From positions 1 through 24,000 of the forward strand of contig CBDUXN010000001.1 of assembly GCA_965371185.1 (NCBI GenBank): a stretch of DNA of 24,000 nt. The letters run 5' to 3'. A program made the position numbers and the translations under genes. The stretch's first letter is position 1. Each line of letters starts with the position of its first letter. Positions 1,624 to 20,710 of this stretch are shown here, one piece after another. The DNA comes from an uncultured Thermoplasmata archaeon. GTDB lineage: Archaea; Thermoplasmatota; Thermoplasmata; GCA-020350865. The notes below the pieces were generated by a model that was not told the origin of the DNA, made no database searches, and saw nothing but the letters and a program-made list of their open reading frames with translations.

Positions 1624-2688
1624 TCAACAAATCCTCGGCACAGGATCCCCGATCGGCATGTCCACGATTCTCTTACCCCCTACCAGCGTGTTCAAAACAA
1701 CTGTGCCGTCTCCCTTTTTTACTTCCCCGATAATTGCCGCATCCCTCCCCTTCTCAGTCCTTCTCAAGGATTCGAGAATCTCCTCTGCTTTCTCCTTCAC
1801 CACGCCCATCACAACCTTTCCCTCATTTGCTATGTTCAGAGGTTCTATTCCAAGCATCTCACAGGCTGCTGTGACAGGCTCCTTTATTGGAATGCTTACC
1901 TCGTTGATTTCTATGAGAACCTTTGATTTTTGGGCCCACTCGTTAAGGGTATTGGCGAGGCCGCCACGGGTTGGGTCTTTCATGGCAACTATTCCCCCCT
2001 CTTCCAAGGCTTTCGAGATCATCGAATTGAGTGGACAGACATCGCTCTTCAATTTTGCTTCGAAGCCGTAGCCCTCTCTTGCGGAGAGGATGATTATTCC
2101 GTGATCGCCGATACTGCCGGATATGATTATCTTGTCCCCTTCTTTGAGGTTCGAATCCTTCAGCCAATCTCCCTCAAAATTCCTGTATTTTTTTATCTCC
2201 TCGATGTTGGTATCCAAAAATTGCGATCTTCTCCCGATCCCCGAGGTATTGATGCAGATCTTGTCCATGGCACCTTTTTCCATGACCTTTGTATCGCCTG
2301 TGATGATGGGTATGCCTGTTTCTTTGGAGACCTTTCCAATGCTATCTAAAAGTCTATCTAGATCGGAGATCAAGAAACCTTCCTCGATGATCAAGCCCAG
2401 GGACAAGGCCAAGGGCTCTGCGCCCATGACAGAGAGGTCGTTTATCGTGCCTGAAAGGGCCAAACCTCCGATGTCCCCTCCAGGGAAAAATATTGGGTTT
2501 ACCACATAAGAGTCTGTGGTGAAAACTATGCCCTCCACTACGCCAGCATCATCTAAGTCCTGAAGTGAAATGTCTATGTCTCTACCTGATTCAAAAGCAC
2601 CGATATGCTCTAAAATGTTCCTCTGGATCAACTTCTGCATGATCGCTCCACCGGCGCCGTGTGAAAGGGTAATGCGCTCCTCGCTCAT
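1624..2688 (-). CDS. hypE: [NiFe]-hydrogenase maturation protein HypE
   Basis: The C-terminus GDPVPRIC is the invariant HypE PRIC terminus whose Cys carries the carbamoyl/cyano group. N-terminal LSHGAGG and an AIR-synthase-like body are present. The track start is GTG 2697. ATG 2688 (MSEERITLSHGAGG) has a GTGAT SD-like motif 5 nt upstream and is preferred. Confidence 0.93.
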   Translation of the reverse strand: MSEERITLSHGAGGAIMQKLIQRNILEHIGAFESGRDIDISLQDLDDAGVVEGIVFTTDSYVVNPIFFPGGDIGGLALSGTINDLSVMGAEPLALSLGLIIEEGFLISDLDRLLDSIGKVSKETGIPIITGDTKVMEKGAMDKICINTSGIGRRSQFLDTNIEEIKKYRNFEGDWLKDSNLKEGDKIIISGSIGDHGIIILSAREGYGFEAKLKSDVCPLNSMISKALEEGGIVAMKDPTRGGLANTLNEWAQKSKVLIEINEVSIPIKEPVTAACEMLGIEPLNIANEGKVVMGVVKEKAEEILESLRRTEKGRDAAIIGEVKKGDGTVVLNTLVGGKRIVDMPIGDPVPRIC

Positions 2689-2697
2689 TAGAATCAC

Positions 2698-2756
2698 TTA
2701 CTATATATCATTTAATAATTATTATTATAGAAAGAAAAAAACATTAAAATAGGAAA
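2698..2756 (-). promoter_or_regulatory. AT-rich spacer with a minus-strand oligo-T tract (terminator-like) and TATA-like sequence for hypE
   Basis: The minus strand reads ...tgtttttttctttctataataataattattaaatgatatatagtaagtgattctaATG. The T-run follows the 69-aa ORF stop, and ctataataataatt lies ~30-40 nt upstream of hypE ATG 2688. Confidence 0.3.
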
Positions 2757-2966
2757 TTATGCAGGTGGTGGTTCACCCTCTAAAACGATCTCAGTCACTT
2801 CTCTCCTCGAATACACCAAATGTTTTCCTTGCTCCTCGATAATTCTCGTCTCGAATCCATCTTTCTTGTAGGTTTCCTCAGCGGTATTGGCAGGCTCCAT
2901 TCCTTCGTAATTTTCTCCATCCCACATGAACTTCTTTCCGTCTATGATTTTACAGATCTCAGGCAT
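2757..2966 (-). CDS. Small hypothetical protein (69 aa)
   Basis: ATG start with GGGGGAAGTGA SD-like motif upstream and its own AT-rich upstream region (aaagattata). It sits between the endopeptidase gene and hypE on the same strand. No motif recognised: not HypA (no CxxC pairs) and not HypC (no MCxxxP). Confidence 0.5.
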   Translation of the reverse strand: MPEICKIIDGKKFMWDGENYEGMEPANTAEETYKKDGFETRIIEEQGKHLVYSRREVTEIVLEGEPPPA

Positions 2967-3063
2967 CGCTCACTTCCCCCAGTTGAGTTCTTCGGCATGG
3001 TATAATCTTTATCGTATTTCACATTAACTGACTCTCCATCATTCTACGAACAAATCCAGACCT

Positions 3064-3552
3064 TTAAAAGAATTTTTTTACGATGATCTCACATATCTCT
3101 TTGACCTTACCCTTCAAAGGTTCAGATAGACCTGGCTCCACCAATTCAGGTATATTCTCAACCTGGCATGAGAGGATCCTCACATCCACACCACAGAAAT
3201 CCCTTAACTCCCTTAAAAGATTGGATGTCGGTATCTGATGCATTGAGAAATCATCGATTTTATTTTCTGGCAGGTCATCCAAGTCGATCTCAAATACCTC
3301 ACCAGGTTGTTTTCCAACATCCACTGCATCCACGATGATTATCTTTTCTGGCCTTTTCTCGTCTATGGTGATGTTGAACAAGAACTCCCTAACAGATGTC
3401 CCGGCATTGATTATGCAAATGTGCTCAGGAATATTGTATTTGCTCTCGAGTTCTTCAGCAACAGCTGGACCGAAGCCGTCATCGCCAAATAGGATATTTC
3501 CGCATCCAAAGATGATTACAGACTTATCGCGGTATTCAGGCATGTCTTCCAA
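3064..3552 (-). CDS. [NiFe]-hydrogenase maturation endopeptidase (HyaD/HycI/FrhD family)
   Basis: GCGNILFGDDGFGPAV near the N-terminus, IIIVDAVD mid-protein and FSMHQIP late. This is the Asp/Asp/His Ni-ligand spacing of the hydrogenase C-terminal endopeptidase family, at ~160 aa. The track start is TTG 3552 with GGAGG 8 nt upstream; ATG 3543 is an alternative. Confidence 0.88.
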   Translation of the reverse strand: MEDMPEYRDKSVIIFGCGNILFGDDGFGPAVAEELESKYNIPEHICIINAGTSVREFLFNITIDEKRPEKIIIVDAVDVGKQPGEVFEIDLDDLPENKIDDFSMHQIPTSNLLRELRDFCGVDVRILSCQVENIPELVEPGLSEPLKGKVKEICEIIVKKFF

Positions 3553-3793: not shown

Positions 3794-4753
3794 ATGGTAA
3801 AAGTGGCAGAAGAATGGCTTAACATCTGTGGCGGTTGTGAAGTAACTATTTTGGACATCGGTGAACCATTGCTGGATCTGCTTGCGCAGCTGGAGTTCGT
3901 GCATATACCTGTTCTGATGGACCACAAGTATTTTGGACAGACTGGTGAAGACGATACGAACATCATCCAGATACCAGAAGCGGATGTGGGCATAATCTCC
4001 GGCGGTGTGAGGAACGAGAAGGAGAAGCATGTGGCAGAGGCGATGCGAAAGAGCTGTAAGACGCTAATAGCGCTGGGCTCGTGCGCATGTTTTGGTGGCA
4101 TCCCTGCCTTGGCGAATATGTATACATTGGAGGATCTGTGCAATAAAGTGTACAGGGAATCCAAGACTACGGAGCCGGCAGACACTCCTAAGGAGAACTT
4201 ACCGCCTCTTTTGGACAGGGTTTATGCAGTGGATGAGATCATAAAAGTTGATGTGGCTATTCCAGGTTGCCCAACAAATCCTGTTCTAATCGTTGAGGCT
4301 TTAACAGCTCTTTTAGAAGGTAAGGAGTGGTCAATGCCTGAGAGAAGCGTTTGCGATGACTGTCCAGTAAAGAGAGAGAAGAAGGCCGAAGTGACGATCA
4401 AAAGACCTCTGCAGGATGCACAGTTTACTCCGGGCGAATATGACAGCTGGCGATGCTTCAACGAGCAGGGGATCATTTGCTTGGGCACTGTAACGAAATC
4501 CGGATGTGGCAAAACAGCTACAGAAGGAGAGCAAACGGTACCTCGATGCGTTAAAGGATACATGCCGTGCAGAGGGTGCTTTGGGCCGATAAGAAAGGGC
4601 GCCAATCCACTGGTGGACATGATGAGCGCGATGTCAAGCATCGGTTTGAATGCTAGAGATGTTGACGATAGAAGAGCGCTGCTGAACAGATACATCGGAG
4701 CACAGAAGAGGTTGAGACCATTACCTGCGAGACCCAGACCTGGAGGGGGGTGA
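3794..4753 (+). CDS. mvhG: F420-non-reducing [NiFe] hydrogenase small subunit (MvhG/VhuG type)
   Basis: Cys-rich small-subunit pattern: NICGGCEV, LGSCACFGGIPA, IPGCP, CDDCP, CLGTVTKSGCG, CRGCFGP. It is separated by 5 nt from the large-subunit gene, which has its own GGTGAT SD. Confidence 0.9.
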   Translation: MVKVAEEWLNICGGCEVTILDIGEPLLDLLAQLEFVHIPVLMDHKYFGQTGEDDTNIIQIPEADVGIISGGVRNEKEKHVAEAMRKSCKTLIALGSCACFGGIPALANMYTLEDLCNKVYRESKTTEPADTPKENLPPLLDRVYAVDEIIKVDVAIPGCPTNPVLIVEALTALLEGKEWSMPERSVCDDCPVKREKKAEVTIKRPLQDAQFTPGEYDSWRCFNEQGIICLGTVTKSGCGKTATEGEQTVPRCVKGYMPCRGCFGPIRKGANPLVDMMSAMSSIGLNARDVDDRRALLNRYIGAQKRLRPLPARPRPGGG

Positions 4754-4758
4754 TATAA

Positions 4759-6204
4759 ATGGGAAAGACTCTTACAATAGCACCGGTATCGAGAATTGAA
4801 GGTCATGCGAAAGTGACCATTCAACTGGACGATGCAGGCAATGTTGCAGATACCTTCGTCAACGTGGTGGAACTTAGAGGCTTTGAGAAGTTCTGCATCG
4901 GCAGGCCAGTGGAGGAATTACCAAGGATAACCACCAGCATATGCGGTGTGTGCCCGTGGTCGCATCATCTTGCCTCAGCAAAGGCGAATGATGCAGTTTT
5001 TGGTGTGGAGCCCCCACCTGCCGGCAGGAAATTGAGGGAGCTGTGTAACAGCATAGCCTTTACAGAGGAACACATCCTGCACTTCTTCTTCCTTGCAGGA
5101 CCCGACTTCGTGATGGGTCCGGATGCGGACTACTCTGTTAGGAACGTTATAGGCATCGCTCAAAAGTTCCCGGACATCGGAAAGAAGGTGGTAAGGAACA
5201 GGCATTTGGGTGCACAGATGCTTACCATTGTCTCAGGCAAATCAATACATCCTGTTACCGCGGTACCAGGCGGTTTCAGCAAGCCACTTACGGCAGCTGA
5301 AAAGGATAAAGTACTCCCAATGGCAGAAGAGGTGCTTGAGTTCGCAAAGTTCGCAATAAAATTTGCAAAAGAGGATCTATTCTCGAAATACATCGATACT
5401 GTGAAGACGCTCGGGGTCATAAAAACAGGCTTTTTGGGCACGGTTCGTGACGATGGATCAATGGACCTATACGATGGTAAAGCGAGGCTCATGAAGCCGG
5501 ACGGAAGCTATGAGGAGTTCGAATATACCAACTACACGGATTATATAGAAGAAAAAGTCTTACCCTGGACCTACCTTAAGTTCCCGTATGCAAAGAGCTG
5601 GGGCGAAGGATTCGATATGAATCTGGACGCACCTAAAGGCATCTATAGGACGAACACATTGGCAAGAATAAACGTTGTGGACAAGATTCCCACGCAGCTA
5701 GCGCAGGCGGAGCTTGAAGAGTTCCGCAAGGAGTTCGGAAGACCAGCACAACAGACACTATTGTACAATTGGGCCAGGTTGATTGAGTTACTGTACAACG
5801 CAGAGTACATGGTGGAACTGCTCAACGATCCGGAGATAACCAGCACGGAAACAAGGGTCCCGGTTACACCCAGGGCCGCTCATGGTATCGGCGCTACCGA
5901 AGCACCGAGAGGCACTTTGATCCATGATTACGAGACAGACGAAAGGGGCATGGTCACGAATGTGAACCTGATCGTTGGTACAACCCACAACAACGCTCCA
6001 ATAAACATGTCGGTGAAACAGGCTGCTACGAGTCTAATAAAAGACGGCAAATATGACCAGGGCATTTTAAACCAGGTTGAGATGAGCATTCGGGCATATG
6101 ACCCGTGCCTGAGCTGTGCAACCCATAACCTGGACGGTACCATACCAGTGAAAGTGGACATAATGGATCATAGGGGAAAGCTGCTGAATACCTTTAAAAA
6201 TTAA
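4759..6204 (+). CDS. mvhA: F420-non-reducing [NiFe] hydrogenase large subunit (MvhA type, group 3c-like)
   Basis: N-terminal RIEGH and [NiFe] ligand motif ICGVCPWSHH. C-terminal DPCLSCATH is followed by a 25-aa tail, the part removed by the maturation endopeptidase. The 481-aa size and the MvhG/MvhD neighbours fit Mvh. Confidence 0.95.
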   Translation: MGKTLTIAPVSRIEGHAKVTIQLDDAGNVADTFVNVVELRGFEKFCIGRPVEELPRITTSICGVCPWSHHLASAKANDAVFGVEPPPAGRKLRELCNSIAFTEEHILHFFFLAGPDFVMGPDADYSVRNVIGIAQKFPDIGKKVVRNRHLGAQMLTIVSGKSIHPVTAVPGGFSKPLTAAEKDKVLPMAEEVLEFAKFAIKFAKEDLFSKYIDTVKTLGVIKTGFLGTVRDDGSMDLYDGKARLMKPDGSYEEFEYTNYTDYIEEKVLPWTYLKFPYAKSWGEGFDMNLDAPKGIYRTNTLARINVVDKIPTQLAQAELEEFRKEFGRPAQQTLLYNWARLIELLYNAEYMVELLNDPEITSTETRVPVTPRAAHGIGATEAPRGTLIHDYETDERGMVTNVNLIVGTTHNNAPINMSVKQAATSLIKDGKYDQGILNQVEMSIRAYDPCLSCATHNLDGTIPVKVDIMDHRGKLLNTFKN

Positions 6205-6252: not shown

Positions 6253-6699
6253 TTACATCCTGTAAGGACTCGGTCCCAAGGCTTTTATCTGCTCCGTCAT
6301 CTCCTTCATAACCTCTGCGAACCTTTGACCTTCTGATGCGGAAATCCATTCCAAGCGATATCGCTCAGGCTCGAGGCCCAAATCCTCCAATAGAAGGAAG
6401 ATCGCATCTGCTCTTTTCTCAGCTATCAGGTTGCCTTCAATGTAATGACAGTCTCCAGGGTGGCAGCCGCACATCAGAACTCCGTCAGCACCTTTTGAAA
6501 GGGCATCGATCACTAAATTGGGATGGACCATCCCTGAGCACATGACGCGGATTATCCTGATATTCGATGGATATTGAAGTCTTGAAGTGCCTGCCAAATC
6601 TGCCCCGGTGTAGGAACACCAGTTGCAACAAAATGCGATTATCAACGGCTCGAAATCCTCTTCTCCTGCTATTCCTTCAGTTGTCCCCCCCTCCACCAT
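6253..6699 (-). CDS. mvhD: MvhD-type hydrogenase/Hdr-bridging [2Fe-2S] subunit (minimal 148-aa form)
   Basis: FlpD/MvhD Cys pattern: FCCNWCSYTGADLAG, RVMCSG, GADGVLMCGCHPGDCHY. ATG directly abuts the stop of the upstream HdrA gene (TAAATG), and GGAGGTGG SD lies inside the upstream gene. Confidence 0.92.
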   Translation of the reverse strand: MVEGGTTEGIAGEEDFEPLIIAFCCNWCSYTGADLAGTSRLQYPSNIRIIRVMCSGMVHPNLVIDALSKGADGVLMCGCHPGDCHYIEGNLIAEKRADAIFLLLEDLGLEPERYRLEWISASEGQRFAEVMKEMTEQIKALGPSPYRM

Positions 6700-9600: not shown

Positions 9601-9717
9601 GGGCAGTTTGTCGATAAGATACACCTTGAAACCTGAATCTGCCAAATCAAGTGATGACTGCATCCCGCTTATTCCGCCGCCAACAACCAGCACGGCCCCG
9701 ATCTTATCACCGCTCAT
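6700..9717 (-). CDS. hdrA: Tandem-fused double HdrA-like flavoprotein (1005 aa), copy 1
   Basis: First half: VVGGGISGMQSSLDLADSG, DKTFPTNDCAMCIMAPK, inserted 2x[4Fe-4S] ferredoxin (CTGCGVCGSKCP, CIGCGICEEEC), CVGSRD..YCSSVCC. Second half: HdrA N-terminal-domain motif GVFICHCGINIGG..ASCTPRTH..CSWVH, a second VIGGGLSGMTAALELAKQG, CVGSRNEERPYCSRICC, FLEAHMKLRPVD, and a C-terminal ferredoxin (CDGCAYCIDPCP, CKGCGVCMATCP). ATG overlaps the upstream stop (ATGA at 9714-9717), with GGAGGTGA SD. Confidence 0.9.
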   Translation of the reverse strand: MSGDKIGAVLVVGGGISGMQSSLDLADSGFKVYLIDKLPSIGGVMSQLDKTFPTNDCAMCIMAPKLVGTGRHHNIEVISNTEIESVEGEAGKFKVTLVRRPRRINEEKCTGCGVCGSKCPVEAIDEYNWGLTKRGAMFIRYPQSVPLKFMIDKEKCIGCGICEEECKANAVEYDQEEQKFDLNVGSIILSPGYSMFDPSLKTEYGYGRYKNVVSSMEFERFLSATGPFAGTVMRPSDGDIPEKVAFIQCVGSRDSQMGNEYCSSVCCMFALKEAIIAQEHSEGLKSHIFFMDLRAFGKEFDDYYKRAEEEHKIGFTRCRVAEITEVPETQNLMVKYVEDGELKEEEFNLVVLSTGFQPPENVKELAEKVGIELNRYNFCDTGVFTPLEASKPGIFVSGVFNGPKDIPDTVAQASGAAAKASSMISSERGKMITIKEYPPERDISDEEPRIGVFICHCGINIGGVVNVPEIVEYAKTLPNVVYSEHNLYTCSEDTQKGIKEKIQEHNLNRVIVASCTPRTHEPLFRSTTKEGGLNPYLFEMANIRDQCSWVHMHEPEKATLKAKDLVRMAVAKSRLLEPLYELTLNVFQSGLVIGGGLSGMTAALELAKQGYEVHLVEREKELGGNLRRIHYVLSEKDEDPQEILKQTVEKVVDNEKIKVHLGTTVKSIEGFVGNFKTVLSDETEIEHGIVIVATGGLEYKPKEYLYGQDERVLTQMELEEKLAKADLKPNSVVMIQCVGSRNEERPYCSRICCADAIKNALKIKERNPDAEIFVLYKDIRSYGFREDYYREAADKGVRFIRYDDEHMPEVAKNGDGMAVTVTDPILTEQITIKTEYVVLSAATLPQPDNEELAQMLKVPLSKDKFFLEAHMKLRPVDFANDGVFLCGLAHGPKFIDESISQACGTVSRACTILCNETMELEPTISEVIDENCDGCAYCIDPCPYNALTLIEYMRNGQVKKTVERNETACKGCGVCMATCPKQGIMVKGFKLNQLGAMVDAVLEVA

Positions 9718-10499: not shown

Positions 10500-13400
10500 C
10501 TATCCCACCTCCCTCACTGCTGCCTTAACCTGGGCTATCAGCTGTTCGTCTGTAAATTGTTTTAGTGATACCGCCTTTTCAGGGCAGCTCGCCGCGCAGG
10601 TCCCGCAGCCCTTGCAAAGCACCTCGGTTACTCTCGCTATATCGTTCTCGTCCTTCTCTATCGCGTTGAATGGGCATAGCACAACGCAAGTACCACATCC
10701 TGTACAGATATTCTCATCTATGGTGGAAACCACCCCTTCTGCCTCAAGGATCTCTTTGGAGAGGATCGTGGAGGCTCTTGATACGGCAGCGCTCGCTTGG
10801 GAAACACATTCCTCAAAGAATTTTGGTGAGTGGGCAAGTCCGCAAAGGAATATACCTTCAGTGGCGAATTCTACGGGACGAAGCTTCATATGCGCTTCCA
10901 AAAAGAATCCATGCTTGCTCAGCGGCACCTTCAACATCTGCGCCAACTCACCGTTATCTGGGTGTGGTATTGTGGCTGCGCTCAAAACCAGAAGGTCTGG
11001 TTCAATTACAATTTCCTCGTCAAGGAACTGCTCTTTGATCTTCACCCTCAAACCCTTCTTATCGCTCACCTCGGGTTTTGTTTCGTCATCGTATCTAATG
11101 AACTTTATACCTTTTTTCGCTGCCTCCTCATAAAACACCTCGCTGAAACCGTAGGTTCTGATATCTTTGAATAGCACATAGACATTTGCATCCGGTTTCA
11201 ACTCCTCGATCTTTAGGGCGTTTTTCACTGCCTCGGTGCAGCATACTCTACTGCAATACGGCCTCTCTTCATTTCTGCAGCCAACGCATTGAATCATTAC
11301 TATGGTATCTGCATCGACCTTACTCTTAGCCAGCCTTTCCTCCAGTTCCAGTTGGGTTAGAACATTTTTATTTTTACCGTAAAGGTACTCCGTAGGCTTG
11401 TACTCCTGTCCTCCAGTTGCCACTATGACTATTCCATGCTCGATTTCCTTATCTTCGCCGTTATGGTCTACAAGCGTTTTGAAGTTGCCAATATATCCCG
11501 ATATATTTTTCACTGTGCTGTTTGTGAATACATGGATCTTTTCATCTGAATCAATGCTTTTTATCAGTTTTTTCATTTTTTTCTGGATGTCCTTCTTCTC
11601 GCCAACCATTTCGTAATGTATTCGTTTCATTAGACCTCCAAGTTCATTCTCCCTTTCAACGATGAACGCCTCATAGCCTTGTTTAGAAAGCTCTAATGCT
11701 GCGGTCATGCCGCTCAATCCACCCCCTATGACCAGACCTGAAGGTTTAATGTCTATGGGAACTCGTTTTAAGGGCTCAAGTAAACCAGCCTTTGCCACCA
11801 CCATTCTTACCAAATCTTTGGCTTTTTGTGTTGCTTTCTCAGGTTCATGCATATGCACCCATGAGCACTGGTCGCGAATATTCGCCATCTCAAAAAGATA
11901 CGGGTTTAAACCCGCCTCAGCCACCGTATTTTGGAAAAGGGGTTGATGTGTTCTAGGAGTGCACGATGCAACTATCACTCTGTTCAATCCGTGCTCTTCG
12001 ATCTTTTCTCCGATCTTCTTTTGCGTATCCTGAGAGCATGTGTAGAGATTATTCTCAGCATAGACCACATTTGGTAGTGTCTTTGCATACTCCACCACCT
12101 CAGGTACATTCACTACACCACCTATGTTGATGCCGCAGTGGCATACAAAAACACCTACGCGGGCCTCTTCACCACTTATATCTCTCTCTGGTGGGTACTC
12201 CTTTACAGTGACCAGTTTTCCACGCTCAGAGGCGATGACAGATGAAGCTTTGGCTGCTGCACCACTTGCCTCTGACACGCTGTCAGGGATATCCTTTGGT
12301 GCACCAAATGCTCCGCCTACAAATATCCCGGGGCGAGAGGTCTCTAACGGGGAGAACAATATATCTGTAGAGCAAAAATCGTATGGGTTCAGCTCTATAC
12401 CGAGCTTGGTGCTCAGATCCTCTGCATCCTTTGGTGCTGTCATTCCCACAGCCAGTGCTACCATATCGAACTCCTCTGAGACCAGTTGCCCTTCTTTGAT
12501 ATAAGTTATGAAAAGATTATTGGTTTCCGGGTCCTCAGCGATAGAGGATATCCTGTTGTTTTTTATGAAGTTTATACCATGCTCTTTCTCAGCCCTTATG
12601 TAGTAATCATCGAATTCTTTACCGAAGGCACGCATATCCATGAAGAATATGGTTGCCTTCAAGCCCGGGGTGTGCTCCTGCGCTATCACAGCCTCCTTTA
12701 TCGCGAACATGCAGCAAACAGAGGAACAATATGGGTTGCCGATGCTTCTGTCTCTGGAACCCACACATTGTATGAACGCTATCTTCTTCACCAGCTCCCC
12801 ATCTGAGGGCCTTAAAACCAATCCACCGTATGGACCTGTGGCGCTGAGCATCCTCTCCAGCTCAAGGCTTGAAACAACGTTTGGATACCTGCCGTAGCCG
12901 TATTCCCTTCTCTTTTTGAGTAAATCAAATTCATCAAAACCAGGTGAGACAATTATTGAACCCACATTCAATTCTTGTGTTTCCTCCTCTTGGTTGTAAA
13001 CGATTGCACCTGCCGTGCAGTTTCTTTCACAGTTTCCGCAGCCGATGCAATGATCTTTATCTATGGTGAATATTAGTGGCACAGCTTGAGGATATCTAAC
13101 GTAGATAGCTTTGCGAACCTTGAGACCTTTATTGTAGTCATCCACTACCTCAACAGGGCACTTTTGGGTACAGATTCCACATCCAGTACATTTGTTCTCA
13201 TCTACATATCTGGACCTTTTGATGATGGTGACCTTGAAATTACCTGCATCCCCTTCGACCTTCTCTAAATGCGCATTCGTTATCAGATCTATATTACGAT
13301 GCCTTCCAGTCTCAACCAATTTTGGGGCCATGATGCACATGGCACAGTCGTTTGTGGGAAAGGTTTTATCAAGCTGGGCCATAGCCCCGCCGATGCTCGG

Positions 13401-13511
13401 GCTTTTGTCCAAAAGGTATACTCTAAACCCTGAATCGGCCAAGTCCAGGGAGGACTGCATGCCTGCGATTCCTCCACCCACAACCAGAACTGCTCCTACC
13501 GCATCGGTCAT
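10500..13511 (-). CDS. hdrA: Tandem-fused double HdrA-like flavoprotein (1003 aa), copy 2
   Basis: Same motif series as copy 1: GGGIAG, DKTFPTNDCAMC, CTGCGICTQKCP, CIGCGNCERNC, GVFVCHCGINIGG, GGGLSG, CVGCRNEERPYCSRVCC, CTGCGTCVVLCP, CKGCGTCAASCP. ATGA overlap with the upstream MvhD-like gene (13508-13511). Its stop abuts the next ATG (10499/10500). Confidence 0.9.
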   Translation of the reverse strand: MTDAVGAVLVVGGGIAGMQSSLDLADSGFRVYLLDKSPSIGGAMAQLDKTFPTNDCAMCIMAPKLVETGRHRNIDLITNAHLEKVEGDAGNFKVTIIKRSRYVDENKCTGCGICTQKCPVEVVDDYNKGLKVRKAIYVRYPQAVPLIFTIDKDHCIGCGNCERNCTAGAIVYNQEEETQELNVGSIIVSPGFDEFDLLKKRREYGYGRYPNVVSSLELERMLSATGPYGGLVLRPSDGELVKKIAFIQCVGSRDRSIGNPYCSSVCCMFAIKEAVIAQEHTPGLKATIFFMDMRAFGKEFDDYYIRAEKEHGINFIKNNRISSIAEDPETNNLFITYIKEGQLVSEEFDMVALAVGMTAPKDAEDLSTKLGIELNPYDFCSTDILFSPLETSRPGIFVGGAFGAPKDIPDSVSEASGAAAKASSVIASERGKLVTVKEYPPERDISGEEARVGVFVCHCGINIGGVVNVPEVVEYAKTLPNVVYAENNLYTCSQDTQKKIGEKIEEHGLNRVIVASCTPRTHQPLFQNTVAEAGLNPYLFEMANIRDQCSWVHMHEPEKATQKAKDLVRMVVAKAGLLEPLKRVPIDIKPSGLVIGGGLSGMTAALELSKQGYEAFIVERENELGGLMKRIHYEMVGEKKDIQKKMKKLIKSIDSDEKIHVFTNSTVKNISGYIGNFKTLVDHNGEDKEIEHGIVIVATGGQEYKPTEYLYGKNKNVLTQLELEERLAKSKVDADTIVMIQCVGCRNEERPYCSRVCCTEAVKNALKIEELKPDANVYVLFKDIRTYGFSEVFYEEAAKKGIKFIRYDDETKPEVSDKKGLRVKIKEQFLDEEIVIEPDLLVLSAATIPHPDNGELAQMLKVPLSKHGFFLEAHMKLRPVEFATEGIFLCGLAHSPKFFEECVSQASAAVSRASTILSKEILEAEGVVSTIDENICTGCGTCVVLCPFNAIEKDENDIARVTEVLCKGCGTCAASCPEKAVSLKQFTDEQLIAQVKAAVREVG

Positions 13512-14293
13512 GCCTCCACCTCCTGCGTCTCCGCGATATAAAGGGGCGTCGTGCCCTCTATTCCCTCCAATCGTATCAAATTCCGGTCCCTCAGAGTCAC
13601 GACATGCTTGAGAACTTCCCTAGAAGGCACTTTCATCTTTTTTGCCAACTCTTTAACAGATCTGGGTTTATCTTTTGCGAGAAGAAGTATCCTCGTGCGC
13701 ACAAGTTCCTCTACAATGGCAGTATCCATCAATTCATCCAATCTCTCCTGCGATATATTTTCATCATAGACGTTTCCCTTTTCCACTAACCCAAGCTCCT
13801 TTCCCACCAGCGTCCTCAATCTGAAATCTTCCACAGCATTTCTTGCGGCGTACAACGCCTCCATTGTTTCCAAATCAGGTTTCTCCCCTGCCACAGGATT
13901 GGGTCCTAGCCCCTTGATTTGTTCAGTGAACTTTTTTATCGTTTCCGCAAACCTCTCACCTTCGGAGGCGGCGATCCACTCAAGCCCTAATCTTTCTGGC
14001 TCGAGATTGGATTGTGCAAGCACCTTTCTGAGCATTTTCACCCTTCTCTCAGTATGATAATTGCCCTCCATGTAATGGCAATCACCAGGATGGCAACCGC
14101 CGATCAGAACACCATCAGCACCTTGCAGAAACATCTCCACTACGAATAAAGGATCGACTCTGCCAGAGCACATGACCCTCACGATTCTGATGTTCGGTGG
14201 ATACTGGAATCTGCTCACACCCGCCAAATCGGCTCCCGCATAAGAGCACCAGTTGCAAAGAAAGCCTACTATCTTCGGCTCAAATGCCGTCAT
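13508..14293 (-). CDS. MvhD-type protein with C-terminal winged-helix-like extension (261 aa)
   Basis: FLCNWCSYAGADLAG, RVMCSG, GGCHPGDCHY. The extension is DFRLRTLVGKELGLVEKGNVYDE ... RILLLAKDKPRSVKELAKKMKVPSREVLKHVVTLRDRNLIRLEGIEGTTPLYI. AGGAGAGTGA SD lies in the 19-nt spacer upstream. Confidence 0.85.
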   Translation of the reverse strand: MTAFEPKIVGFLCNWCSYAGADLAGVSRFQYPPNIRIVRVMCSGRVDPLFVVEMFLQGADGVLIGGCHPGDCHYMEGNYHTERRVKMLRKVLAQSNLEPERLGLEWIAASEGERFAETIKKFTEQIKGLGPNPVAGEKPDLETMEALYAARNAVEDFRLRTLVGKELGLVEKGNVYDENISQERLDELMDTAIVEELVRTRILLLAKDKPRSVKELAKKMKVPSREVLKHVVTLRDRNLIRLEGIEGTTPLYIAETQEVEA

Positions 14294-14312: not shown

Positions 14313-14597
14313 TCACTCCGGTTCTACTCCAGACATCAAACCTCTTACACAAACAGAAAAATTACAGGCATCGGTTCTCGCCCTCTCACAGTAATGGCAC
14401 CGCAACGTTAACAACACTTCCCTGATGATCCATTCTTTTGTCTCGTCGTCAACATCTGGAAGATTCTTTTTGATGTCTTCTATGCTTTTGGTTTGCACAT
14501 CCTTCCATTTCGGCTGTGTTGAAAGGAGCATCCTTTTCTTCCAGGCATTCCTCATCTCCTCTATCTTCTTCTGCTCTTCTTCGTTTAATTCGCTCAA
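14313..14597 (-). CDS. Small Cys4 protein (94 aa), paralogue of 17605-17913
   Basis: Conserved block with its paralogue: W.(D/Q)VQTK.I...LP(D/E).D(D/E)ETK..I.R..LLTLRCH(Y/S)CERAR(T/S)D(A/E)CNFSVC(V/I)RGL, i.e. CX2CX7CX4C. TTG start overlaps the HdrA stop (TTGA 14594-14597) and is preceded by AGGAGGGGAT SD. An internal ATG (EEMRNAW) is a possible alternative start. Confidence 0.6.
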   Translation of the reverse strand: MSELNEEEQKKIEEMRNAWKKRMLLSTQPKWKDVQTKSIEDIKKNLPDVDDETKEWIIREVLLTLRCHYCERARTDACNFSVCVRGLMSGVEPE

Positions 14598-17500
14598 GCG
14601 ATCCCCTCCTTAAGTGCAGCGACAGCCTGTGCAAGAATCTGCAAATCCGTAAAGTGGGCAATATCAATGGCCTTCTCAGGACAAGCAGCGCTACAGGTGC
14701 CGCATCCCTTGCATAATACCTCGGCCACCTTCGCCTTCAATTCTTCCATATCAACACTTACTGCCCCGTACGGGCATACCATTTCGCAGGTACCGCAGCC
14801 TGTACATTTTTCCTCATCAACAGAAGATACCACCCCCTCAACAAAGAGCCTCTCTTTCGATAGAATCGTGGCAGCTCTTGAAACAGCAGCGCTTGCCTGT
14901 GAGATACATTCGTTAAAGAATTTGGGCGAATGAGCCAAGCCGCACATGAAGATGCCATCTGTTGCGAATTCCACTGGACGCAGCTTCATATGCGCTTCCA
15001 AGAAAAATCCGTCCTTACTCAAGGGTACCTTCAGCAGTTGTGCCAATTCAGAGTTGTCTGGGTTGGGAAGCGTTGCGGCGCTCAACACCAGGTAATCTGG
15101 TTTCAATACGATATCCTCATTCAGAAAATGATCAAAAACCTTGACTTGTAGGCCATCATCATCGGTAGCCACCGGCTTCGTTTCGTCATCGTATCTGGTG
15201 AAATTGACACCCTGCTTTGCCGCCTCTTCGTAGTAAATTTCCCTGAAACCGTATGTTCTCATATCCTTATACAGGATGAAGACGCTGATATCGGGATTCT
15301 TTTCTTTAACCTTCAATGCATTTTTAACGGCCTCCACACAGCACACCCTGCTGCAGTAGGTTCGAGCTTCGTCCCTGCAACCTACACACTGGATCATAAC
15401 CACCGTTTTGGCTTTGGGATTCAATTCATTATTGAACAGAATATTATCGAATTCTAGCTGGGTAAGCACTTTTTCATTTTTACCGTATAAGTACTCCGTA
15501 GGTTTGTATTCGATACCACCTGTGGCAACGATAATTGCCCCATGTTCAAGGGTCTTCTCTTCGCCATTATGATCCAAGGTACTGACGAAGTTCCCGACAT
15601 AGCCCGAGACGTTCTTTATCACCGTATTTTTATAGACGGTAATTTTGTCGTTTGCCTCGACCTTTGAAAGGGTCTCATTCAGATACCCAGGGATATCTTC
15701 CCCCTTTAAACCGTAATGGAGTCTTTTTACCAGTCCTCCCAATTCATTCTCCTTCTCCACCAGGTAGGCCTCAAATCCCTGCTCCGCAAGTTCCAAGGCT
15801 GCCTGCATCCCGCTTATTCCTCCGCCTATTACCAGGGCGGATTGTTTTACCTCGATCGATATCTTTGGCAGTGATGTGTTCAATCTCGCTTTTGCCACCG
15901 CCATCCGTACCAGATCTTTCGCCTTCTCCGTGGCTCTTTCCGGATCGTTCATGTGGACCCACGAGCACTGATCGCGAATGTTCGCCATCTCAAAGAGGTA
16001 CGGGTTCAAACCTCCTTCAGCCACAGTGTTTTGGAACAATGGCTGATGTGTCCTGGGAGTGCAAGAGGCTACCATCACACGATTGAGGTTATGCTCCTTG
16101 ATCATCTCCTTTATGTGCTCCTGTGCATCTTGGGAACACGTGTACAGATTATCTTCCGCATGAGCGACATTCGGCAGTGTTTTCGCATATTCCACAACAC
16201 CAGGAACATCCACAACACCCCCGATATTAATGCCGCAATGACAGATAAAAGCTCCAATGCGAGGCTCCTCACCAGAAACATCCTTCTCCTCTGGATATTC
16301 CTTTACCGTGGTGAGCGTATCCCTTTGTGATGAAATGACGCTCGACGCTCTTGCTGCTGCTCCAGAAGCTTGGGCAACGCTGTCAGGAATGTCCTTTGGA
16401 TCCTGGAACACACCGGATACGAATATTCCCGGCTTGTTCGTACCTATGGGAGAGAATATGGTGGTACTGCAGAAGTCGAAATCGTTTAATTCGATCCCCA
16501 ATTTTTCGCCCAGCTCTTTTGCATGTTTGGGGTGTTCCATGCCCACCGCAAGAACGACTAAATCGAACTCTTCCTCCTTTAGTTCGCCCTCCTCGATATA
16601 TACTATTTTGAGATTCTTTGTATCACGCATCTCCTCAACAGAAGAAATGCGATTGTTGCTGACAAATCTCACTTTATGTTCATCGGCAGCCCTGATGTAA
16701 TAATCATCGAATTCCTTGCCGAAGGCCCGCATGTCCATGAAGAATATGGTTGAACTCAGGCCTGGAGTATGTTCTTGCGCTATAACCGCCTCTTTTATTG
16801 CGAACATGCAGCATACTGAGGAGCAGTATGGGTTGCCGATGCTTCTGTCTCTGGAACCCACACACTGGATAAATGCTATTTTCTGGGCTATCTTTCCATC
16901 CGATGGTCTGAGAACAACACCTCCATAGGGGCCAGTTGCGCTCAGCATGCGCTCCAATTCGAGACTTGATACAACGTTGGGAAATCTGCCGTAGCCGTAC
17001 TCCCTTCTCATGGTGCTCAGATCGAACTCCTCGAACCCTGGAGACACGATGATCGAGCCCACGTTCAGTTCCATATCTTCCGGTGTTTGGGAATATTGTA
17101 TCGCCCCAGCCCTGCACTGGGTATCGCAGATGCCGCATCCTATGCAGTGATCCTGGTCTATGCAATGGGTTGGAGGTACAGCCTGGGGATATCCGATGTA
17201 GATCGCCTTTCTGACCTTGAAGCCCCTGTTGTACTCATCCTTGACCTCAACAGGGCAGCGCTGTGTACACAGACCGCAGCCTGTACATTTGCTCTCGTCC
17301 ACGTACCGGGGCCTTTTACTCACGGTGACCTTGAAATTGCCTGCCTCGCCTTCCACCTTTTCCACATCAGCATTCGTTATCAGCTTGATGTTGTGATGTC
17401 TTCCCGTCTCAACCAACTTAGGGGCCATGATGCACATTGCACAGTCGTTCGTTGGGAACGTTTTGTCCAACTGAGCCATGGCACCGCCAATGCTGGGTGA

Positions 17501-17608
17501 GCTGTCAACTATGTACACATAATAACCTGAATCAGCCAAATCCAGTGACGACTGCATGCCTGCTATTCCGCCGCCTATGACAAGAACAGCACCCACCTTA
17601 TCGCTCAT
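14594..17608 (-). CDS. hdrA: Tandem-fused double HdrA-like flavoprotein (1004 aa from ATG 17608), copy 3
   Basis: Motif series as copies 1-2: GGGIAG, DKTFPTNDCAMC, CTGCGLCTQRCP, CIGCGICDTQC, GAFICHCGINIGG, GGGISG, CVGCRDEARTYCSRVCC, CTGCGTCEMVCP, CKGCGTCSAACP. The track start (17662) adds 18 non-homologous residues. ATG 17608 (MSDKVGAVLVIGGG) aligns with the paralogues, has GGAGGTG 7 nt upstream, and forms ATGA with the upstream stop. Confidence 0.9.
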   Translation of the reverse strand: MSDKVGAVLVIGGGIAGMQSSLDLADSGYYVYIVDSSPSIGGAMAQLDKTFPTNDCAMCIMAPKLVETGRHHNIKLITNADVEKVEGEAGNFKVTVSKRPRYVDESKCTGCGLCTQRCPVEVKDEYNRGFKVRKAIYIGYPQAVPPTHCIDQDHCIGCGICDTQCRAGAIQYSQTPEDMELNVGSIIVSPGFEEFDLSTMRREYGYGRFPNVVSSLELERMLSATGPYGGVVLRPSDGKIAQKIAFIQCVGSRDRSIGNPYCSSVCCMFAIKEAVIAQEHTPGLSSTIFFMDMRAFGKEFDDYYIRAADEHKVRFVSNNRISSVEEMRDTKNLKIVYIEEGELKEEEFDLVVLAVGMEHPKHAKELGEKLGIELNDFDFCSTTIFSPIGTNKPGIFVSGVFQDPKDIPDSVAQASGAAARASSVISSQRDTLTTVKEYPEEKDVSGEEPRIGAFICHCGINIGGVVDVPGVVEYAKTLPNVAHAEDNLYTCSQDAQEHIKEMIKEHNLNRVMVASCTPRTHQPLFQNTVAEGGLNPYLFEMANIRDQCSWVHMNDPERATEKAKDLVRMAVAKARLNTSLPKISIEVKQSALVIGGGISGMQAALELAEQGFEAYLVEKENELGGLVKRLHYGLKGEDIPGYLNETLSKVEANDKITVYKNTVIKNVSGYVGNFVSTLDHNGEEKTLEHGAIIVATGGIEYKPTEYLYGKNEKVLTQLEFDNILFNNELNPKAKTVVMIQCVGCRDEARTYCSRVCCVEAVKNALKVKEKNPDISVFILYKDMRTYGFREIYYEEAAKQGVNFTRYDDETKPVATDDDGLQVKVFDHFLNEDIVLKPDYLVLSAATLPNPDNSELAQLLKVPLSKDGFFLEAHMKLRPVEFATDGIFMCGLAHSPKFFNECISQASAAVSRAATILSKERLFVEGVVSSVDEEKCTGCGTCEMVCPYGAVSVDMEELKAKVAEVLCKGCGTCSAACPEKAIDIAHFTDLQILAQAVAALKEGIA

Positions 17609-17913
17609 CTGAACACCTCCTGACCGGAGAGGAGACCTCTTATACATACGGAGAAGTTGCACTCATCACTCCTCGCCCTCTCACAGCTGTGGCATCTCAA
17701 CGTTAGGAGCATGTTCCTAGTGATTTTCTTCTTCGTCTCTTCATCGATTTCGGGCAGTGAGGCCAAGCATTCCTGGATGATTTTGGTTTGAACCTGCCCC
17801 CATCTTGGGAGCGTGGAGATGCGTTCCCGATCTTGCCAGGAATCTCTTATCATCTTTATTCTCCCCTTTGTACCTTTGCTCTTAGACTTGGTAGGGGGTT
17901 CTTCTCTCTTCAT
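17605..17913 (-). CDS. Small Cys4 protein (102 aa), paralogue of 14313-14597
   Basis: Same C-terminal block, LLTLRCHSCERARSDECNFSVCIRGLLSG. Basic N-terminus (KREEPPTKSKSKGTKGRIK). ATG overlaps the upstream MvhD-like stop (ATGA 17910-17913), with GGAGGTG SD. Confidence 0.65.
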   Translation of the reverse strand: MKREEPPTKSKSKGTKGRIKMIRDSWQDRERISTLPRWGQVQTKIIQECLASLPEIDEETKKKITRNMLLTLRCHSCERARSDECNFSVCIRGLLSGQEVFR

Positions 17914-18830
17914 CTGAGCACCTCCTCTTTCAGGGTTATGTAAAGAGGCATCACGCCGTCGAACTTGTCCACCATAACCAAACCTCTATCTTTAAGGGTG
18001 ACGATATGCTGCAGCACCTTTTGCGGGGGGAGTTGGATATTGGAAGCGATATCTATAACGGAGTAGGGTCCGTCCATGGTCATAAGAAGAATTTTCTGCC
18101 TGGCAATCTCATCATCTATCGCTCTCTCCATAAGATCGTCAAATTCTTCCTGCGAAAGCTTGTTATCGTAGACATTGCCCTTCTCTATCAGCTCAATTTC
18201 TTTGGCCACAAGAGACCTCAACCTGAAATCCCTTACAGCGTTCTTGGCGGCGAAGAGGGTTTCAAGTTTTTCAATGTCGGGCTTATCTCCCGCTACAGAA
18301 CTGGGGCCCAGAGCCTTTATTTCATTAACAAAATCCTCCACAACCTTGGAAAATCTCTCGCCTTCCGATGCGGATATCCATTCCAAGCGCAATCGCTTCG
18401 GTTCAACTCCTGCCTTCTCGATCAATTTTCTTGCCAGCTTGACCTTCTTCTCTGTGAAGTAATTTCCTGTTATATAGTGACAATCGCCGAGATGGCAGCC
18501 TCCAACGAGCACACCATCCGCACCGTGAATGAACATCTCAATTATGAGAACAGGGTCAATCCTGGAGCTGCACATTACCCGAACCGTCCGAGTGTTTGTA
18601 GGATACTGGTATCTGCTCACGCCCGCCAAATCCGCACCTGCGTAAGAGCACCAGTTGCAGAGAAAGGCTATGATCTTCGGCTCGAATTCTTTTCCAGTTT
18701 TTTCCTCTTCTGCTTTGGCTTCAACTTTCTTTTTGAGCTTTAATTTGATGGTTTTCTTCTTTGGCTTCTCAGCTTTATCTTCCACTTTCTCCTCTTTAGA
18801 GGCGTTTTGTAAGCTCTGTTCTTCGCTCAA
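17910..18830 (-). CDS. MvhD-type protein with Lys/Glu-rich N-terminal extension and C-terminal winged-helix-like extension (306 aa)
   Basis: Core: FLCNWCSYAGADLAG, RVMCSS, GGCHLGDCHY. C-terminal extension: DFRLRSLVAKEIELIEKGNVYDN ... KILLMTMDGPYSVIDIASNIQLPPQKVLQHIVTLKDRGLVMVDKFDGVMPLYI. The N-terminal 47 aa are K/E low complexity. TTG start (TTGA overlap 18827-18830) is supported by GGAGGAGGTGG 5 nt upstream and by the absence of any internal Met before the core. Confidence 0.8.
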   Translation of the reverse strand: MSEEQSLQNASKEEKVEDKAEKPKKKTIKLKLKKKVEAKAEEEKTGKEFEPKIIAFLCNWCSYAGADLAGVSRYQYPTNTRTVRVMCSSRIDPVLIIEMFIHGADGVLVGGCHLGDCHYITGNYFTEKKVKLARKLIEKAGVEPKRLRLEWISASEGERFSKVVEDFVNEIKALGPSSVAGDKPDIEKLETLFAAKNAVRDFRLRSLVAKEIELIEKGNVYDNKLSQEEFDDLMERAIDDEIARQKILLMTMDGPYSVIDIASNIQLPPQKVLQHIVTLKDRGLVMVDKFDGVMPLYITLKEEVLR

Positions 18831-20710
18831 GTTCCCACCTCCTCCAAGGCCGCGATGGCTTCAGCGGTGAGCTGCTCGTCCGTGTAATGTGTCATGGATA
18901 TCGCCTTCTCTGGGCAGATGGAGCCGCAGGTCCCGCAGCCCTTACATGCCGCCACGATGGTCTCAGCTATGCCTTCTTCATCGAATTGGATCGCTCCATA
19001 TGGACAGACCTTTTCACATGATCTACACCCCGAGCATCGCTCCCTGTCCACCTGGGAAACGATGGCCTCTGCCTGAACATAACCCTTACCCATAGGTATA
19101 GAGGCATGAGAGGCTGCGCCGTATGCCTGAGCCACTGTCTCGTTGATGTTTGCTGGGCCGTGAGCTGTGCCGCACAGGAATATACCATCCGTTGCAAAAT
19201 CCACGGGGCGGAGCTTGACATGGGCCTCCAAGAAGAAACCGTCCCTACCCAAAGGAACCTTGAGCAGCTTTGACAGCTCCACTGCTCCAGGCCTCTGGGT
19301 AAGAGGTGTTGCCAACACTATCAGATCAGGCTGCATCCTCCTATCAGCCTTCAACGTTTCGTGGTAGTAGGATATCGTGAGCTTTCCGTCCTCCATCGTA
19401 ACTTTCGGCGGGTTCTCGGGAACGAAGCGTGTGAACTTAACCCTTTTTTCTCTGGACTTATTGTATAAAAGCTCTTGCTCTACCCCGTAAGTTGTTATTC
19501 CCCTGTTGAATACGGTAACCTCCACACCACCCCTTTCTTTCGGTCTTTCTTCGCCTCTCTCAACTCCCCGCCTTCTCGTGGGTCTCCTCGCCCTTCTGTC
19601 CCTTCTGCTCCTTCTTCCTGATGCTCTTTGCTCCTCTGGTTCCTCCGCTGCCTCCTCCTTTCCTTCCTCGGCTTGTTCCTCCTCCCCATTTTCATCCCCC
19701 TTTGCCTCAGCGGCACCTGATGCCATTTCCATGAGCTTCATGGCGTTTTTCACGGTTACAGTGCAGCAGATCCTCGAGCAGTACTCCTTGTCCTGACCCC
19801 TCGAGCCCGCACATGTGATAAACGCAACGTTCTTTAGGTCCGAGGGGAGCTTATCCTCCCTGGCCATTTCCTCGAAATCAGTTAATGTTATAACGTTATC
19901 GAACTCTCCCAATCCGTACAGGCCTTTTGGCCTGTGTTCCTCAGCACCTGTAGCCACTATGATCGTGCCTACACCTATCTCCTTATCCTCGCCATTGACG
20001 TCAAGAACTGCATCGTATTTGCCGATGTATCCCTTTAAAAATTTCAGATTTGTATTCGTGTACAAATGGATTTTTTCATTTGCTTTCACCTTTTCAATCA
20101 GGGGTTCTACGACTTTGTTACCGCTCTCCCCTGTTTGGTAGAGGGTGTTCAGCTTCTTGATAAAGCCGCCAAGCTCAGGCTCCCTCTCGATCAAATGGGT
20201 TTCGAAACCTTGGTTTGCCAGGTTGAGGGCAGCGGTCATACCAGCCACTCCACCTCCCAACACAAGAGAAGATGGCCTGACATCTATTTTCACTTCCTCC
20301 TGCGGTTCGAGAAGTGTGGCCCGAGCGACACCCATTCTTATCAGATCCTTGGCCTTTTCAGAGGCTCTCTCCTTCTCCTTCATGTGCACCCATGAGCAGT
20401 GCTCCCTGATGTTCACGAAGGTGAACAGGTATTTGTTCAACCCGGCCTCTTCGCAAATTCTCATGAAAAGCGGTGCGTGGGTACGGGGTGTGCATGATGC
20501 CACGATCACCCTGTTGAGGTTGTGCTCCTTTATGGCGTTCTTAATCGCCGTTAACCCGTCATCAGCGCAAGTGTAGAGGTTATTCTCGGCATGAACCACA
20601 TTGGGCAATGTCCTTGCATAATCCGCAACGGTTGGCACATCGACGAAGCCGCCGATGTTCACCCCACAGTGGCAGACGAACACACCGATTCTTAGCGTTT
20701 CCTGTTCCAT
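18827..20710 (-). CDS. hdrA: HdrA-like flavoprotein, C-terminal-half type (627 aa): N-terminal Cys domain + FAD domain + C-terminal ferredoxin, with a charged low-complexity insert
   Basis: GVFVCHCGVNIGG..ASCTPRTH..CSWVH, LGGGVAGMTAALNLANQG, CAGSRGQDKEYCSRICC, FLEAHVKLRPVD, CSGCRSCEKVCP, CKGCGTCGSICP. It is collinear with the second half of the fused copies. ATG shares one nt with the upstream stop (TGATG 20708-20712), with GGTGGTGA SD. Confidence 0.88.
   Translation of the reverse strand: MEQETLRIGVFVCHCGVNIGGFVDVPTVADYARTLPNVVHAENNLYTCADDGLTAIKNAIKEHNLNRVIVASCTPRTHAPLFMRICEEAGLNKYLFTFVNIREHCSWVHMKEKERASEKAKDLIRMGVARATLLEPQEEVKIDVRPSSLVLGGGVAGMTAALNLANQGFETHLIEREPELGGFIKKLNTLYQTGESGNKVVEPLIEKVKANEKIHLYTNTNLKFLKGYIGKYDAVLDVNGEDKEIGVGTIIVATGAEEHRPKGLYGLGEFDNVITLTDFEEMAREDKLPSDLKNVAFITCAGSRGQDKEYCSRICCTVTVKNAMKLMEMASGAAEAKGDENGEEEQAEEGKEEAAEEPEEQRASGRRSRRDRRARRPTRRRGVERGEERPKERGGVEVTVFNRGITTYGVEQELLYNKSREKRVKFTRFVPENPPKVTMEDGKLTISYYHETLKADRRMQPDLIVLATPLTQRPGAVELSKLLKVPLGRDGFFLEAHVKLRPVDFATDGIFLCGTAHGPANINETVAQAYGAASHASIPMGKGYVQAEAIVSQVDRERCSGCRSCEKVCPYGAIQFDEEGIAETIVAACKGCGTCGSICPEKAISMTHYTDEQLTAEAIAALEEVGT

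Follow-up and report, generated by a model that had tools for sequence, protein, structure and literature searches.

In a 24,000-nucleotide stretch of DNA from an uncultured Thermoplasmata archaeon (assembly GCA_965371185.1, contig CBDUXN010000001.1, positions 1 to 24,000; hereafter the window), two small genes encoding proteins with a CX2CX7CX4C motif (Cys4 proteins) lie inside an array of genes for HdrA and MvhD. HdrA/MvhD modules are the core of flavin-based electron bifurcation, and the way in which they plug into varied partners is an active structural question. Judged by sequence searches, the Cys4 proteins form an undescribed, lineage-restricted family of small proteins that is in neither Pfam, NCBIfam nor PDB. 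The genes are real, are under strong purifying selection and strictly adjoin genes for long MvhD and HdrA; their domain is recurrently fused to MvhD, and no curated family covers it. The best explanation overall, to which we give a probability of roughly 60%, is that Cys4 is the C-terminal metal-binding module, either split off or fused, of the docking arm of long MvhD in multi-module HdrA/MvhD complexes.

Gene a (14313-14597, minus strand) encodes 94 amino acids (aa) from a TTG start and gene b (17605-17913, minus strand) encodes 102 aa from an ATG start. These coordinates and the translations of the open reading frames (ORFs) match the original prediction, made from the sequence alone, which had presented the two as related. 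The proteins are paralogues (BLASTP, 46/82 identities, 56%, E = 2e-35); conservation is limited to their C-terminal four-fifths. As predicted, their N-termini are charged and dissimilar. At the C-terminus they have in common the motif LLTLRC-x2-CERAR-x3-C-x-FS-x-C-x-RGL-x-SG. The predicted CX2CX7CX4C spacing is correct in both translations, at 14349-14399 (minus strand; C67, C70, C78 and C83) for protein a and at 17644-17694 (minus strand; C74, C77, C85 and C90) for protein b.

Both genes are translationally coupled to their neighbours. The stop codon of an HdrA gene overlaps the TTG start of gene a (14597) by 4 nt (TTGA), the stop codon of a gene for a 306-aa MvhD overlaps the ATG of gene b (17913) by 4 nt (ATGA), and the stop of gene b (TGA) overlaps the ATG at 17608 of a 1004-aa HdrA (ATGA). 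Strong Shine-Dalgarno motifs stand 5 nt before each start (AAGGAGGGG-N5-TTG for gene a, GAGGAGGTG-N5-ATG for gene b). The array, on the minus strand, reads MvhD(306)-Cys4-HdrA(1004)-Cys4-MvhD(261), with the local order HdrA-Cys4-MvhD at gene a and MvhD-Cys4-HdrA at gene b. The remaining two HdrA/MvhD junctions in the window (9714-9717 and 10499/10500) are too tight to hold a small gene. The original prediction had claimed the overlaps, the ribosome-binding motifs, the two gene orders and the lack of a small gene in modules 1 and 2, and all of these stand. A third paralogue was found on the same contig, outside the window and 14 kb away (G000:C1:31631-31936), flanked by a long MvhD of 259 aa and an HdrA-MvhD fusion of 1204 aa.

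Among 5.8 billion proteins, 127 free homologues of 95-107 aa were recovered by a word-indexed search, none of them less than 55% identical, and the family totals about 150 homologues when free and fused forms are taken together, all of them from uncultivated Thermoplasmata. It is very small, because an exhaustive HMMER search of 1.84 billion cluster representatives recovered only seven genuine clusters. Within the class, members were present in 17 of 401 sampled genomes, spread over four families (f1, 3/4 genomes; f4, 4/46; f15, 5/7; f20, 4/6), and when one genome of every prokaryotic species was scanned for the pattern, all matches came from Thermoplasmata and "Methanomassiliicoccales" metagenome-assembled genomes (MAGs). 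Compared with its orthologue in CP070751, a complete MAG genome, protein a is 91% identical (proportion of synonymous differences, pS, 0.79; of nonsynonymous differences, pN, 0.05) and protein b is 79% identical (pS 0.75, pN 0.12). Since synonymous sites are saturated while pN stays at 0.05-0.12, both genes are under strong purifying selection. The TTG start of gene a is supported as well, because the N-terminus read from it is conserved in the CP070751 orthologue. The original prediction had thought it unlikely that the ORFs were spurious and had named a lack of homologues outside this locus as a possible outcome; on the strength of the roughly 150 homologues and of the pN and pS values, we reject spurious ORFs.

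The CX2CX7CX4C motif is intact in 147/150 family members. Across the 150 sequences C74, C77 and C90 never vary and C85 is conserved in 99%, and these four candidate ligands fall into two short-spaced pairs (C74-X2-C77 and C85-X4-C90) that fit a generic zinc knuckle or ribbon. Invariance, or nearly so, extends to S33-T34-L-P36-x-W38, L53, D57, T60, I64, R66 and R73, as well as to E78, R79, R81, F87, R92, G93, L94, S96 and G97, while W26 is essentially invariant in the free forms only. For a domain of 70 residues this is a large number of invariant charged and aromatic positions, which suggests a tightly packed or buried interface rather than a protein that stands alone. A fifth cysteine, C49, occurs in 81% of members and is missing from the 94-aa window protein and from every fused form; protein b belongs to the C49-bearing subfamily and protein a to the C49-less one.

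Scans of the two window proteins and of 33 members against Pfam and NCBIfam found no family over threshold, only sub-threshold noise. A profile search of PDB gave no significant family either, the sole match being ribosomal protein S14 type Z, over the Cys block (E = 0.12). The homology search of the conserved core that the original prediction had proposed therefore yields only weak, sub-threshold matches, and its statement that the family was not recognised agrees with the curated databases. The same is true of its statement that the Cys spacing is not a ferredoxin motif: Fer4 families gave no match even at E values up to 1, and a CX2CX2CX3C(P) motif is not present. No match to FlpD (PF02662) was obtained in the free Cys4 proteins, FlpD being confined to the separate or fused partner. 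In the literature we found no paper that describes the family, nor one on a small Cys-rich Hdr subunit.

The nearest likenesses are to zinc sites. Like S14 type Z, the family has two close Cys pairs in an Arg-rich loop (alignment 'RC..C.RAR....F.VC'), and it shares with the plant SHI/SRS RING-like finger the CX2CX7CX4C spacing that opens the SHI/SRS zinc finger, the sole published precedent found for this spacing. Unlike zinc knuckles and ribbons, to which it has no significant sequence or profile match, Cys4 has a second pair of the form CX4C rather than CX2C, and the predictions place its first pair where a long helix ends, not in a beta-hairpin.

One further likeness has entered public databases as a name. 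Among the 120 listed homologues, 30 carry the JGI name 'ribosomal protein L44E', and this automatic name, taken literally, would make Cys4 a paralogue of L44e (eL42, PF00935) acting at the ribosome. The Pfam model Ribosomal_L44 does match 15/33 members weakly (best E = 0.0067). When the family profile was compared by hhalign with a profile of 26 L44e sequences from the phylum, the probability was 59-76% and the score 29-32, with 73-76% and 31-32 over 54-55 collinear columns, and the spacing from the Trp to the first Cys is identical in the two profiles ('S.L.W.Q ... L.LRC..C'). None of 200 full column shuffles reached the observed score of 32 (10.7 ± 2.4, maximum 22.6), and in 150 shuffles confined to the upstream part, which left the Cys block unchanged, the score always stayed below the observed one (mean 21.8, maximum 28.8); the upstream part alone scores 11.5, against a random mean of 10.7. 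The similarity to L44e appears to exceed what composition would give, yet it is no proof of homology.

Several observations speak against the ribosomal name. One window protein (P0002) scored 15.3 bits (E = 0.027) and the other (P0001) had no match, the Pfam gathering threshold being 25 bits, whereas a bona fide L44e, at 98.8 bits, is encoded on another contig of the same genome. The N-terminal CX2C half of the zinc site, present in 26/26 L44e sequences, is absent from the family, which has two new downstream cysteines and sits in a redox operon. Helical structure is predicted for the part of the family that aligns with the extended rRNA-binding loop of L44e. The mean net charge of the family core, +2.4 (isoelectric point, pI, 8.3), is close to neutral, compared with +20.8 (pI 10.8) for L44e, and both context and fusions bind the family to MvhD/HdrA. 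We consider a ribosomal function very unlikely, and the idea that Cys4 is a working L44e paralogue scarcely credible. Distant common ancestry with L44e is conceivable, and a truncated duplicate of eL42 may have been the source of the module. The original prediction had counted homology to a known family with an unrelated role as a result that would speak against it. On this point no match exceeds the threshold, but the weak collinear similarity to L44e, at an hhalign probability of about 75%, remains. With this comparison a recurrent mis-annotation in public metagenomes is corrected.

To return to the assignment of Cys4 to the MvhD arm, its genomic context is uniform. Searches by tblastn with the window HdrA, long MvhD and Cys4 proteins gave 15 + 13 loci, some from the same genomes. 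In 28/28 of these locus records, which overlap in part and come from four Thermoplasmata families, and among the called genes of CP070751, Cys4 directly adjoins a long MvhD, between HdrA genes. The putative partner at these loci is a long MvhD of about 260 aa that combines FlpD with a winged helix-turn-helix (wHTH). Two orders occur, HdrA - long MvhD - Cys4 - double HdrA and HdrA - Cys4 - long MvhD - double HdrA, and the window holds one Cys4 gene of each. In both, the gene after the MvhD/Cys4 pair, where it lies within the fetched stretch, encodes a double HdrA 67-91% identical to the 1004-aa window protein. The Cys4-MvhD order of gene a recurs in six loci (L016, L019, L020, L060, L062 and L063), and synteny with the 1003-aa double HdrA of the window is repeated in four (L007, L019, L020 and L063).

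The original prediction had proposed an accessory or adaptor subunit specific to some HdrA/MvhD modules and had suggested analysing its co-occurrence with HdrA/MvhD across genomes. Adjacency in all 28 locus records, the lack of a curated family and the fusions to MvhD support this proposal. The array of CP070751 holds four Cys4 copies. An apparent fifth copy in that genome (L007:3813-4121, CP070751.1), a 102-aa ORF, is unrelated to the Cys4 family and was probably called in error; it lies between a half HdrA and a short MvhD, overlaps the MvhD start and has no counterpart in the genome of the window.

The fusions identify the partner more closely. The first to be seen, in a search of cluster representatives, was a 322-aa protein laid out as FlpD, linker, wHTH and Cys4, its last 70 residues forming the Cys4 domain. 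We found at least 22 MvhD-wHTH-Cys4 fusions in several lineages, 20 by targeted search and more by whole-protein search, with total lengths of 246-380 aa and Cys4 parts that are 65-100% identical; in families f15 and f20 they are open frames of 338-358 aa. Frameshift or sequencing artefacts are ruled out as their origin by the number of proteins (22), by their occurrence in four sources (NCBI, JGI, ENA and Logan) and by contigs of up to 3.58 Mb. The Cys4 part begins at "ISTLP", a few residues past the last strand of the wHTH, and the fused forms are without the ~30-residue N-terminal helix (I22-R-x-S-W26) of the free proteins. In a FastTree phylogeny, the fused domains group with the C49-less free proteins, such as window protein a. 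Because the fusions join Cys4 to long MvhD, its partner is specifically the wHTH-bearing long form. Long MvhD is itself very widespread (4930 matches in the whole-protein search, including Bathyarchaeia), and a common adaptor has therefore been extended by the Cys4 module in particular lineages only.

Covalent attachment to MvhD also speaks against a diffusible carrier, and so bears on a different use of the cysteines. In the manner of the C-terminal arm of DsrC, the Cys loop could alternate between a dithiol and a disulfide state, as a substrate or redox switch of HdrA modules that have no HdrBC. No hdrBC genes were found among the four HdrA/MvhD modules of the window, the sole CCG-domain gene lying outside it; the protein carries a CXXC pair at the end of a helix followed by a flexible tail, and thiol/disulfide chemistry is described as central to HdrA/MvhD in the sources consulted. 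However, the proteins have no similarity to DsrC/TusE or thioredoxin families (no Pfam match to DsrC/TusE at E values up to 1), and their last conserved Cys lies 8-15 residues from the C-terminus, compared with the penultimate position expected for DsrC/TusE. Four rather than two invariant cysteines in a compact loop point to a metal site. We find such a thiol switch highly improbable.

If Cys4 is read as the C-terminal module of a long MvhD, the closest known system is that of the BamF-type adaptor. BamF, of the class II benzoyl-CoA reductase (BCRII) of Geobacter metallireducens, is described in a preprint as an adaptor of the MvhD type that exceeds classical MvhD by more than 100 residues (bioRxiv 10.64898/2026.04.10.717634). 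According to this cryo-electron microscopy study, the wHTH of BamF forms an interface with BamI, a partner subunit, and the adaptor operates together with the fused double HdrA BamE (doi 10.64898/2026.04.10.717634). By this description, the long MvhDs beside Cys4 are alike in having an MvhD [2Fe-2S] domain, an extension that ends in a wHTH and a double-HdrA partner. They differ in that a Cys4 domain of ~70 residues follows the wHTH, fused or as a separate gene, whereas the description of BamF stops at the wHTH and includes neither a Cys4 module nor a small subunit; a text search did not find the word 'zinc' in the main text of the preprint (doi 10.64898/2026.04.10.717634). The partner domain of Cys4 is the MvhD/FlpD (PF02662) of the Mvh-Hdr, Fdh-Hdr-Fmd and Elp-Hdr complexes (PDB 5ODC, 7BKB and 8RVU). 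The solved MvhDs, of 129-141 residues, are without the wHTH and the Cys4 extension, and the Cys4 protein is without FlpD similarity.

Structures of the free and the fused form were predicted by AlphaFold2. For the free protein (33-sequence alignment), helices were predicted at residues 12-26, 37-52 and 58-75, followed by a low-confidence Cys tail, with a mean predicted local distance difference test score (pLDDT) of 60.7. The fused protein (86-sequence alignment) was modelled with a pLDDT of 84.8 and a predicted template-modelling score of 0.82, as an MvhD Rossmann-like core, a helical linker, the wHTH and two Cys4 helices (pLDDT 72-83), the Cys loop remaining at a pLDDT of ~50. The low confidence of this predicted loop is consistent with one that would become ordered only with a metal or a partner. 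A Foldseek search of PDB with the fused model returned only MvhD chains (5ODH_D, 8RVU_F and 7BKB_F; E = 1e-12 to 1e-14, template-modelling score 0.88-0.94 relative to the target) and weak ArsR/MarR wHTH proteins. A PDB sequence search with the fused-protein profile retrieved short MvhDs (1e-58 to 1e-61) and one ArsR protein, and neither a long MvhD nor the tail.

The likeness of the arm to DNA-binding proteins raises the question of regulation. An MvhD [2Fe-2S] domain, a wHTH and a Cys4 knuckle could together sense the redox state, bind DNA or RNA and in this way control the operon, Cys4 being the part that helps to bind nucleic acid. The wHTH yields weak matches of the ArsR/SmtB type, and the Cys block resembles the Arg-rich zinc knuckles of ribosomal proteins S14 and L44e. 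Yet all of the HTH matches are below Pfam thresholds, the core has the near-neutral mean net charge given above rather than that of L44e, and up to four copies occur per operon, each translationally coupled to enzyme subunits. In the solved precedent, BamF, the wHTH is described as serving protein docking. A regulatory role is improbable in our view.

We therefore favour the docking-arm module and propose how it might work. Cys4, made of three predicted helices and a C-terminal CX2CX7CX4C loop, would be an add-on to the winged-helix arm of long MvhD, in multi-module HdrA/MvhD complexes of the flavin-based electron-bifurcation type in non-methanogenic Thermoplasmata. In some lineages the module would be a covalent tail of MvhD, and in the genome of the window it would have become detached, with a gene of its own that is translationally coupled. 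Free proteins would have gained their ~30-residue N-terminal helix with the invariant Trp, which probably stands in for the covalent tether. A single metal centre, either a structural zinc or, less likely, a small iron-sulfur (Fe-S) cluster, is most likely bound by the four cysteines and would stiffen the loop so that the arm docks onto the adjacent double HdrA module. We infer that the Cys4 protein physically binds the MvhD arm. Metal binding is suggested by the four near-invariant cysteines, and a docking role by analogy with BamF, whose wHTH is described as contacting BamI.

The nature of the metal separates this proposal from an explanation with the same location and partner, namely an extra electron relay. 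Cys4 would then bind a [2Fe-2S] or [4Fe-4S] cluster between the [2Fe-2S] cluster of MvhD and the next HdrA and would wire successive modules. Every neighbour is an Fe-S or flavin electron-transfer protein, the four cysteines are 99-100% conserved, and one subfamily has in C49 a fifth conserved Cys, as is often found around clusters. Disorder of the Cys loop in the cofactor-free models likewise points to Fe-S, being common for cluster-binding loops modelled without their cofactor. An added relay would also be mechanistically sensible, as the preprint on BCRII places the MvhD-type cluster ~28 Å from the bifurcating flavin adenine dinucleotide, a gap that needs a conformational swing (doi 10.64898/2026.04.10.717634).

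On the other side, the spacing is unlike any canonical ferredoxin motif, and neither Fer4 nor any other Fe-S family matches. Zinc is indicated by the plant RING-like finger as the only literature precedent found for the spacing and by the zinc knuckles of ribosomal proteins as the closest weak sequence matches. In addition, most long-MvhD systems operate without Cys4. We regard a relay as possible but unlikely and put the odds of a structural metal at about twice those of a relay. Its full form, in which Cys4 with an Fe-S cluster of its own would carry electrons from the [2Fe-2S] cluster of long MvhD to the next double HdrA, with three to five bifurcation modules per operon in series, is likewise doubtful. 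If true, a daisy-chained electron-bifurcating machine of this sort is not described so far.

Some observations also weigh against the docking-arm module itself. AlphaFold2 gives the Cys loop no confident fold, and classical zinc knuckles are usually well predicted by it. The module must be dispensable for the basic function of the arm, because long MvhD, with its 4930 matches, is very widespread without it. In one of the two gene orders the small gene precedes MvhD, an arrangement that a C-terminal add-on fits less obviously.

Our results define a family that Pfam and NCBIfam do not contain and that is a new accessory part on a known type of adaptor, with no unusual chemistry shown so far. To judge by the preprint, the first structure of a long-MvhD adaptor, that of BamF, dates only from 2026. 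The split and fused forms of Cys4 offer a natural handle for identifying the docking target of the MvhD arm in the HdrA arrays of non-methanogenic Thermoplasmata, which are very large and uncharacterised, and a concrete one for learning how large multi-HdrA arrays are put together.

Each Cys4 gene of the window has a long MvhD as its putative partner. The 306-aa protein directly upstream of gene b (17910-18830, minus strand) consists of an FlpD domain (Pfam, 3.3e-52), a linker and a wHTH with weak ArsR-type HTH matches at residues 244-287. The 261-aa protein, encoded 19 nt downstream of gene a (13508-14293, minus strand), has an FlpD domain (2.7e-56) and a match to HTH_20 at residues 204-242; the HTH matches of the long MvhDs are all under Pfam thresholds. 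Both Cys4 genes flank, and are translationally coupled to, the gene of the 1004-aa double HdrA (14594-17608, minus strand), in which Pfam finds two Pyr_redox/FAD modules and Fer4. The ORF of the 1003-aa double HdrA (10500-13511, minus strand) lies downstream of the pair formed by gene a and the 261-aa MvhD.

Two neighbouring proteins carry extra segments. The 306-aa long MvhD has an extra Lys/Glu-rich N-terminal extension (residues 1-45) that is absent from the two 261-aa paralogues. The 627-aa HdrA C-half (18827-20710, minus strand) has a low-complexity insert of ~65 residues in its thioredoxin reductase-like domain, at about residues 335-400, with an acidic stretch of Glu and Ala and then an Arg-rich one (…EEQAEEGKEEAAEEPEEQRASGRRSRRDRRARRPTRRRG…); no other HdrA copy of the window has it.

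The HdrA/MvhD array continues beyond the window on the minus strand (G000:C1:24001-36100; L004:646-12081). This extension encodes a 1117-aa HdrA with extra Fer4 domains, the 259-aa long MvhD, the third Cys4 protein, the 1204-aa HdrA-MvhD fusion, a 381-aa HdrB/C-like protein (Fer4 and two CCG domains), a 586-aa half HdrA and a 143-aa MvhD. With these genes, the locus has at least seven HdrA units and one CCG-domain protein. No match to McrA (PF02249) was found in the window's own genome, which is 92% complete, despite very many Hdr/Mvh genes, and the host is therefore probably not a methanogen. We take the organism to be, in all probability, a non-methanogenic member of the Thermoplasmata whose HdrA arrays serve another purpose.

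Near the other end of the window, divergent genes encode the small and large subunits of a group-3-type [NiFe] hydrogenase (3794-6204, plus strand, and 1624-3552, minus strand), beside a short MvhD (6253-6699). Other genes present encode a HycI-type maturation protease and a HypE-like protein. The presence of the hydrogenase genes suggests H2 as the electron donor for the array.

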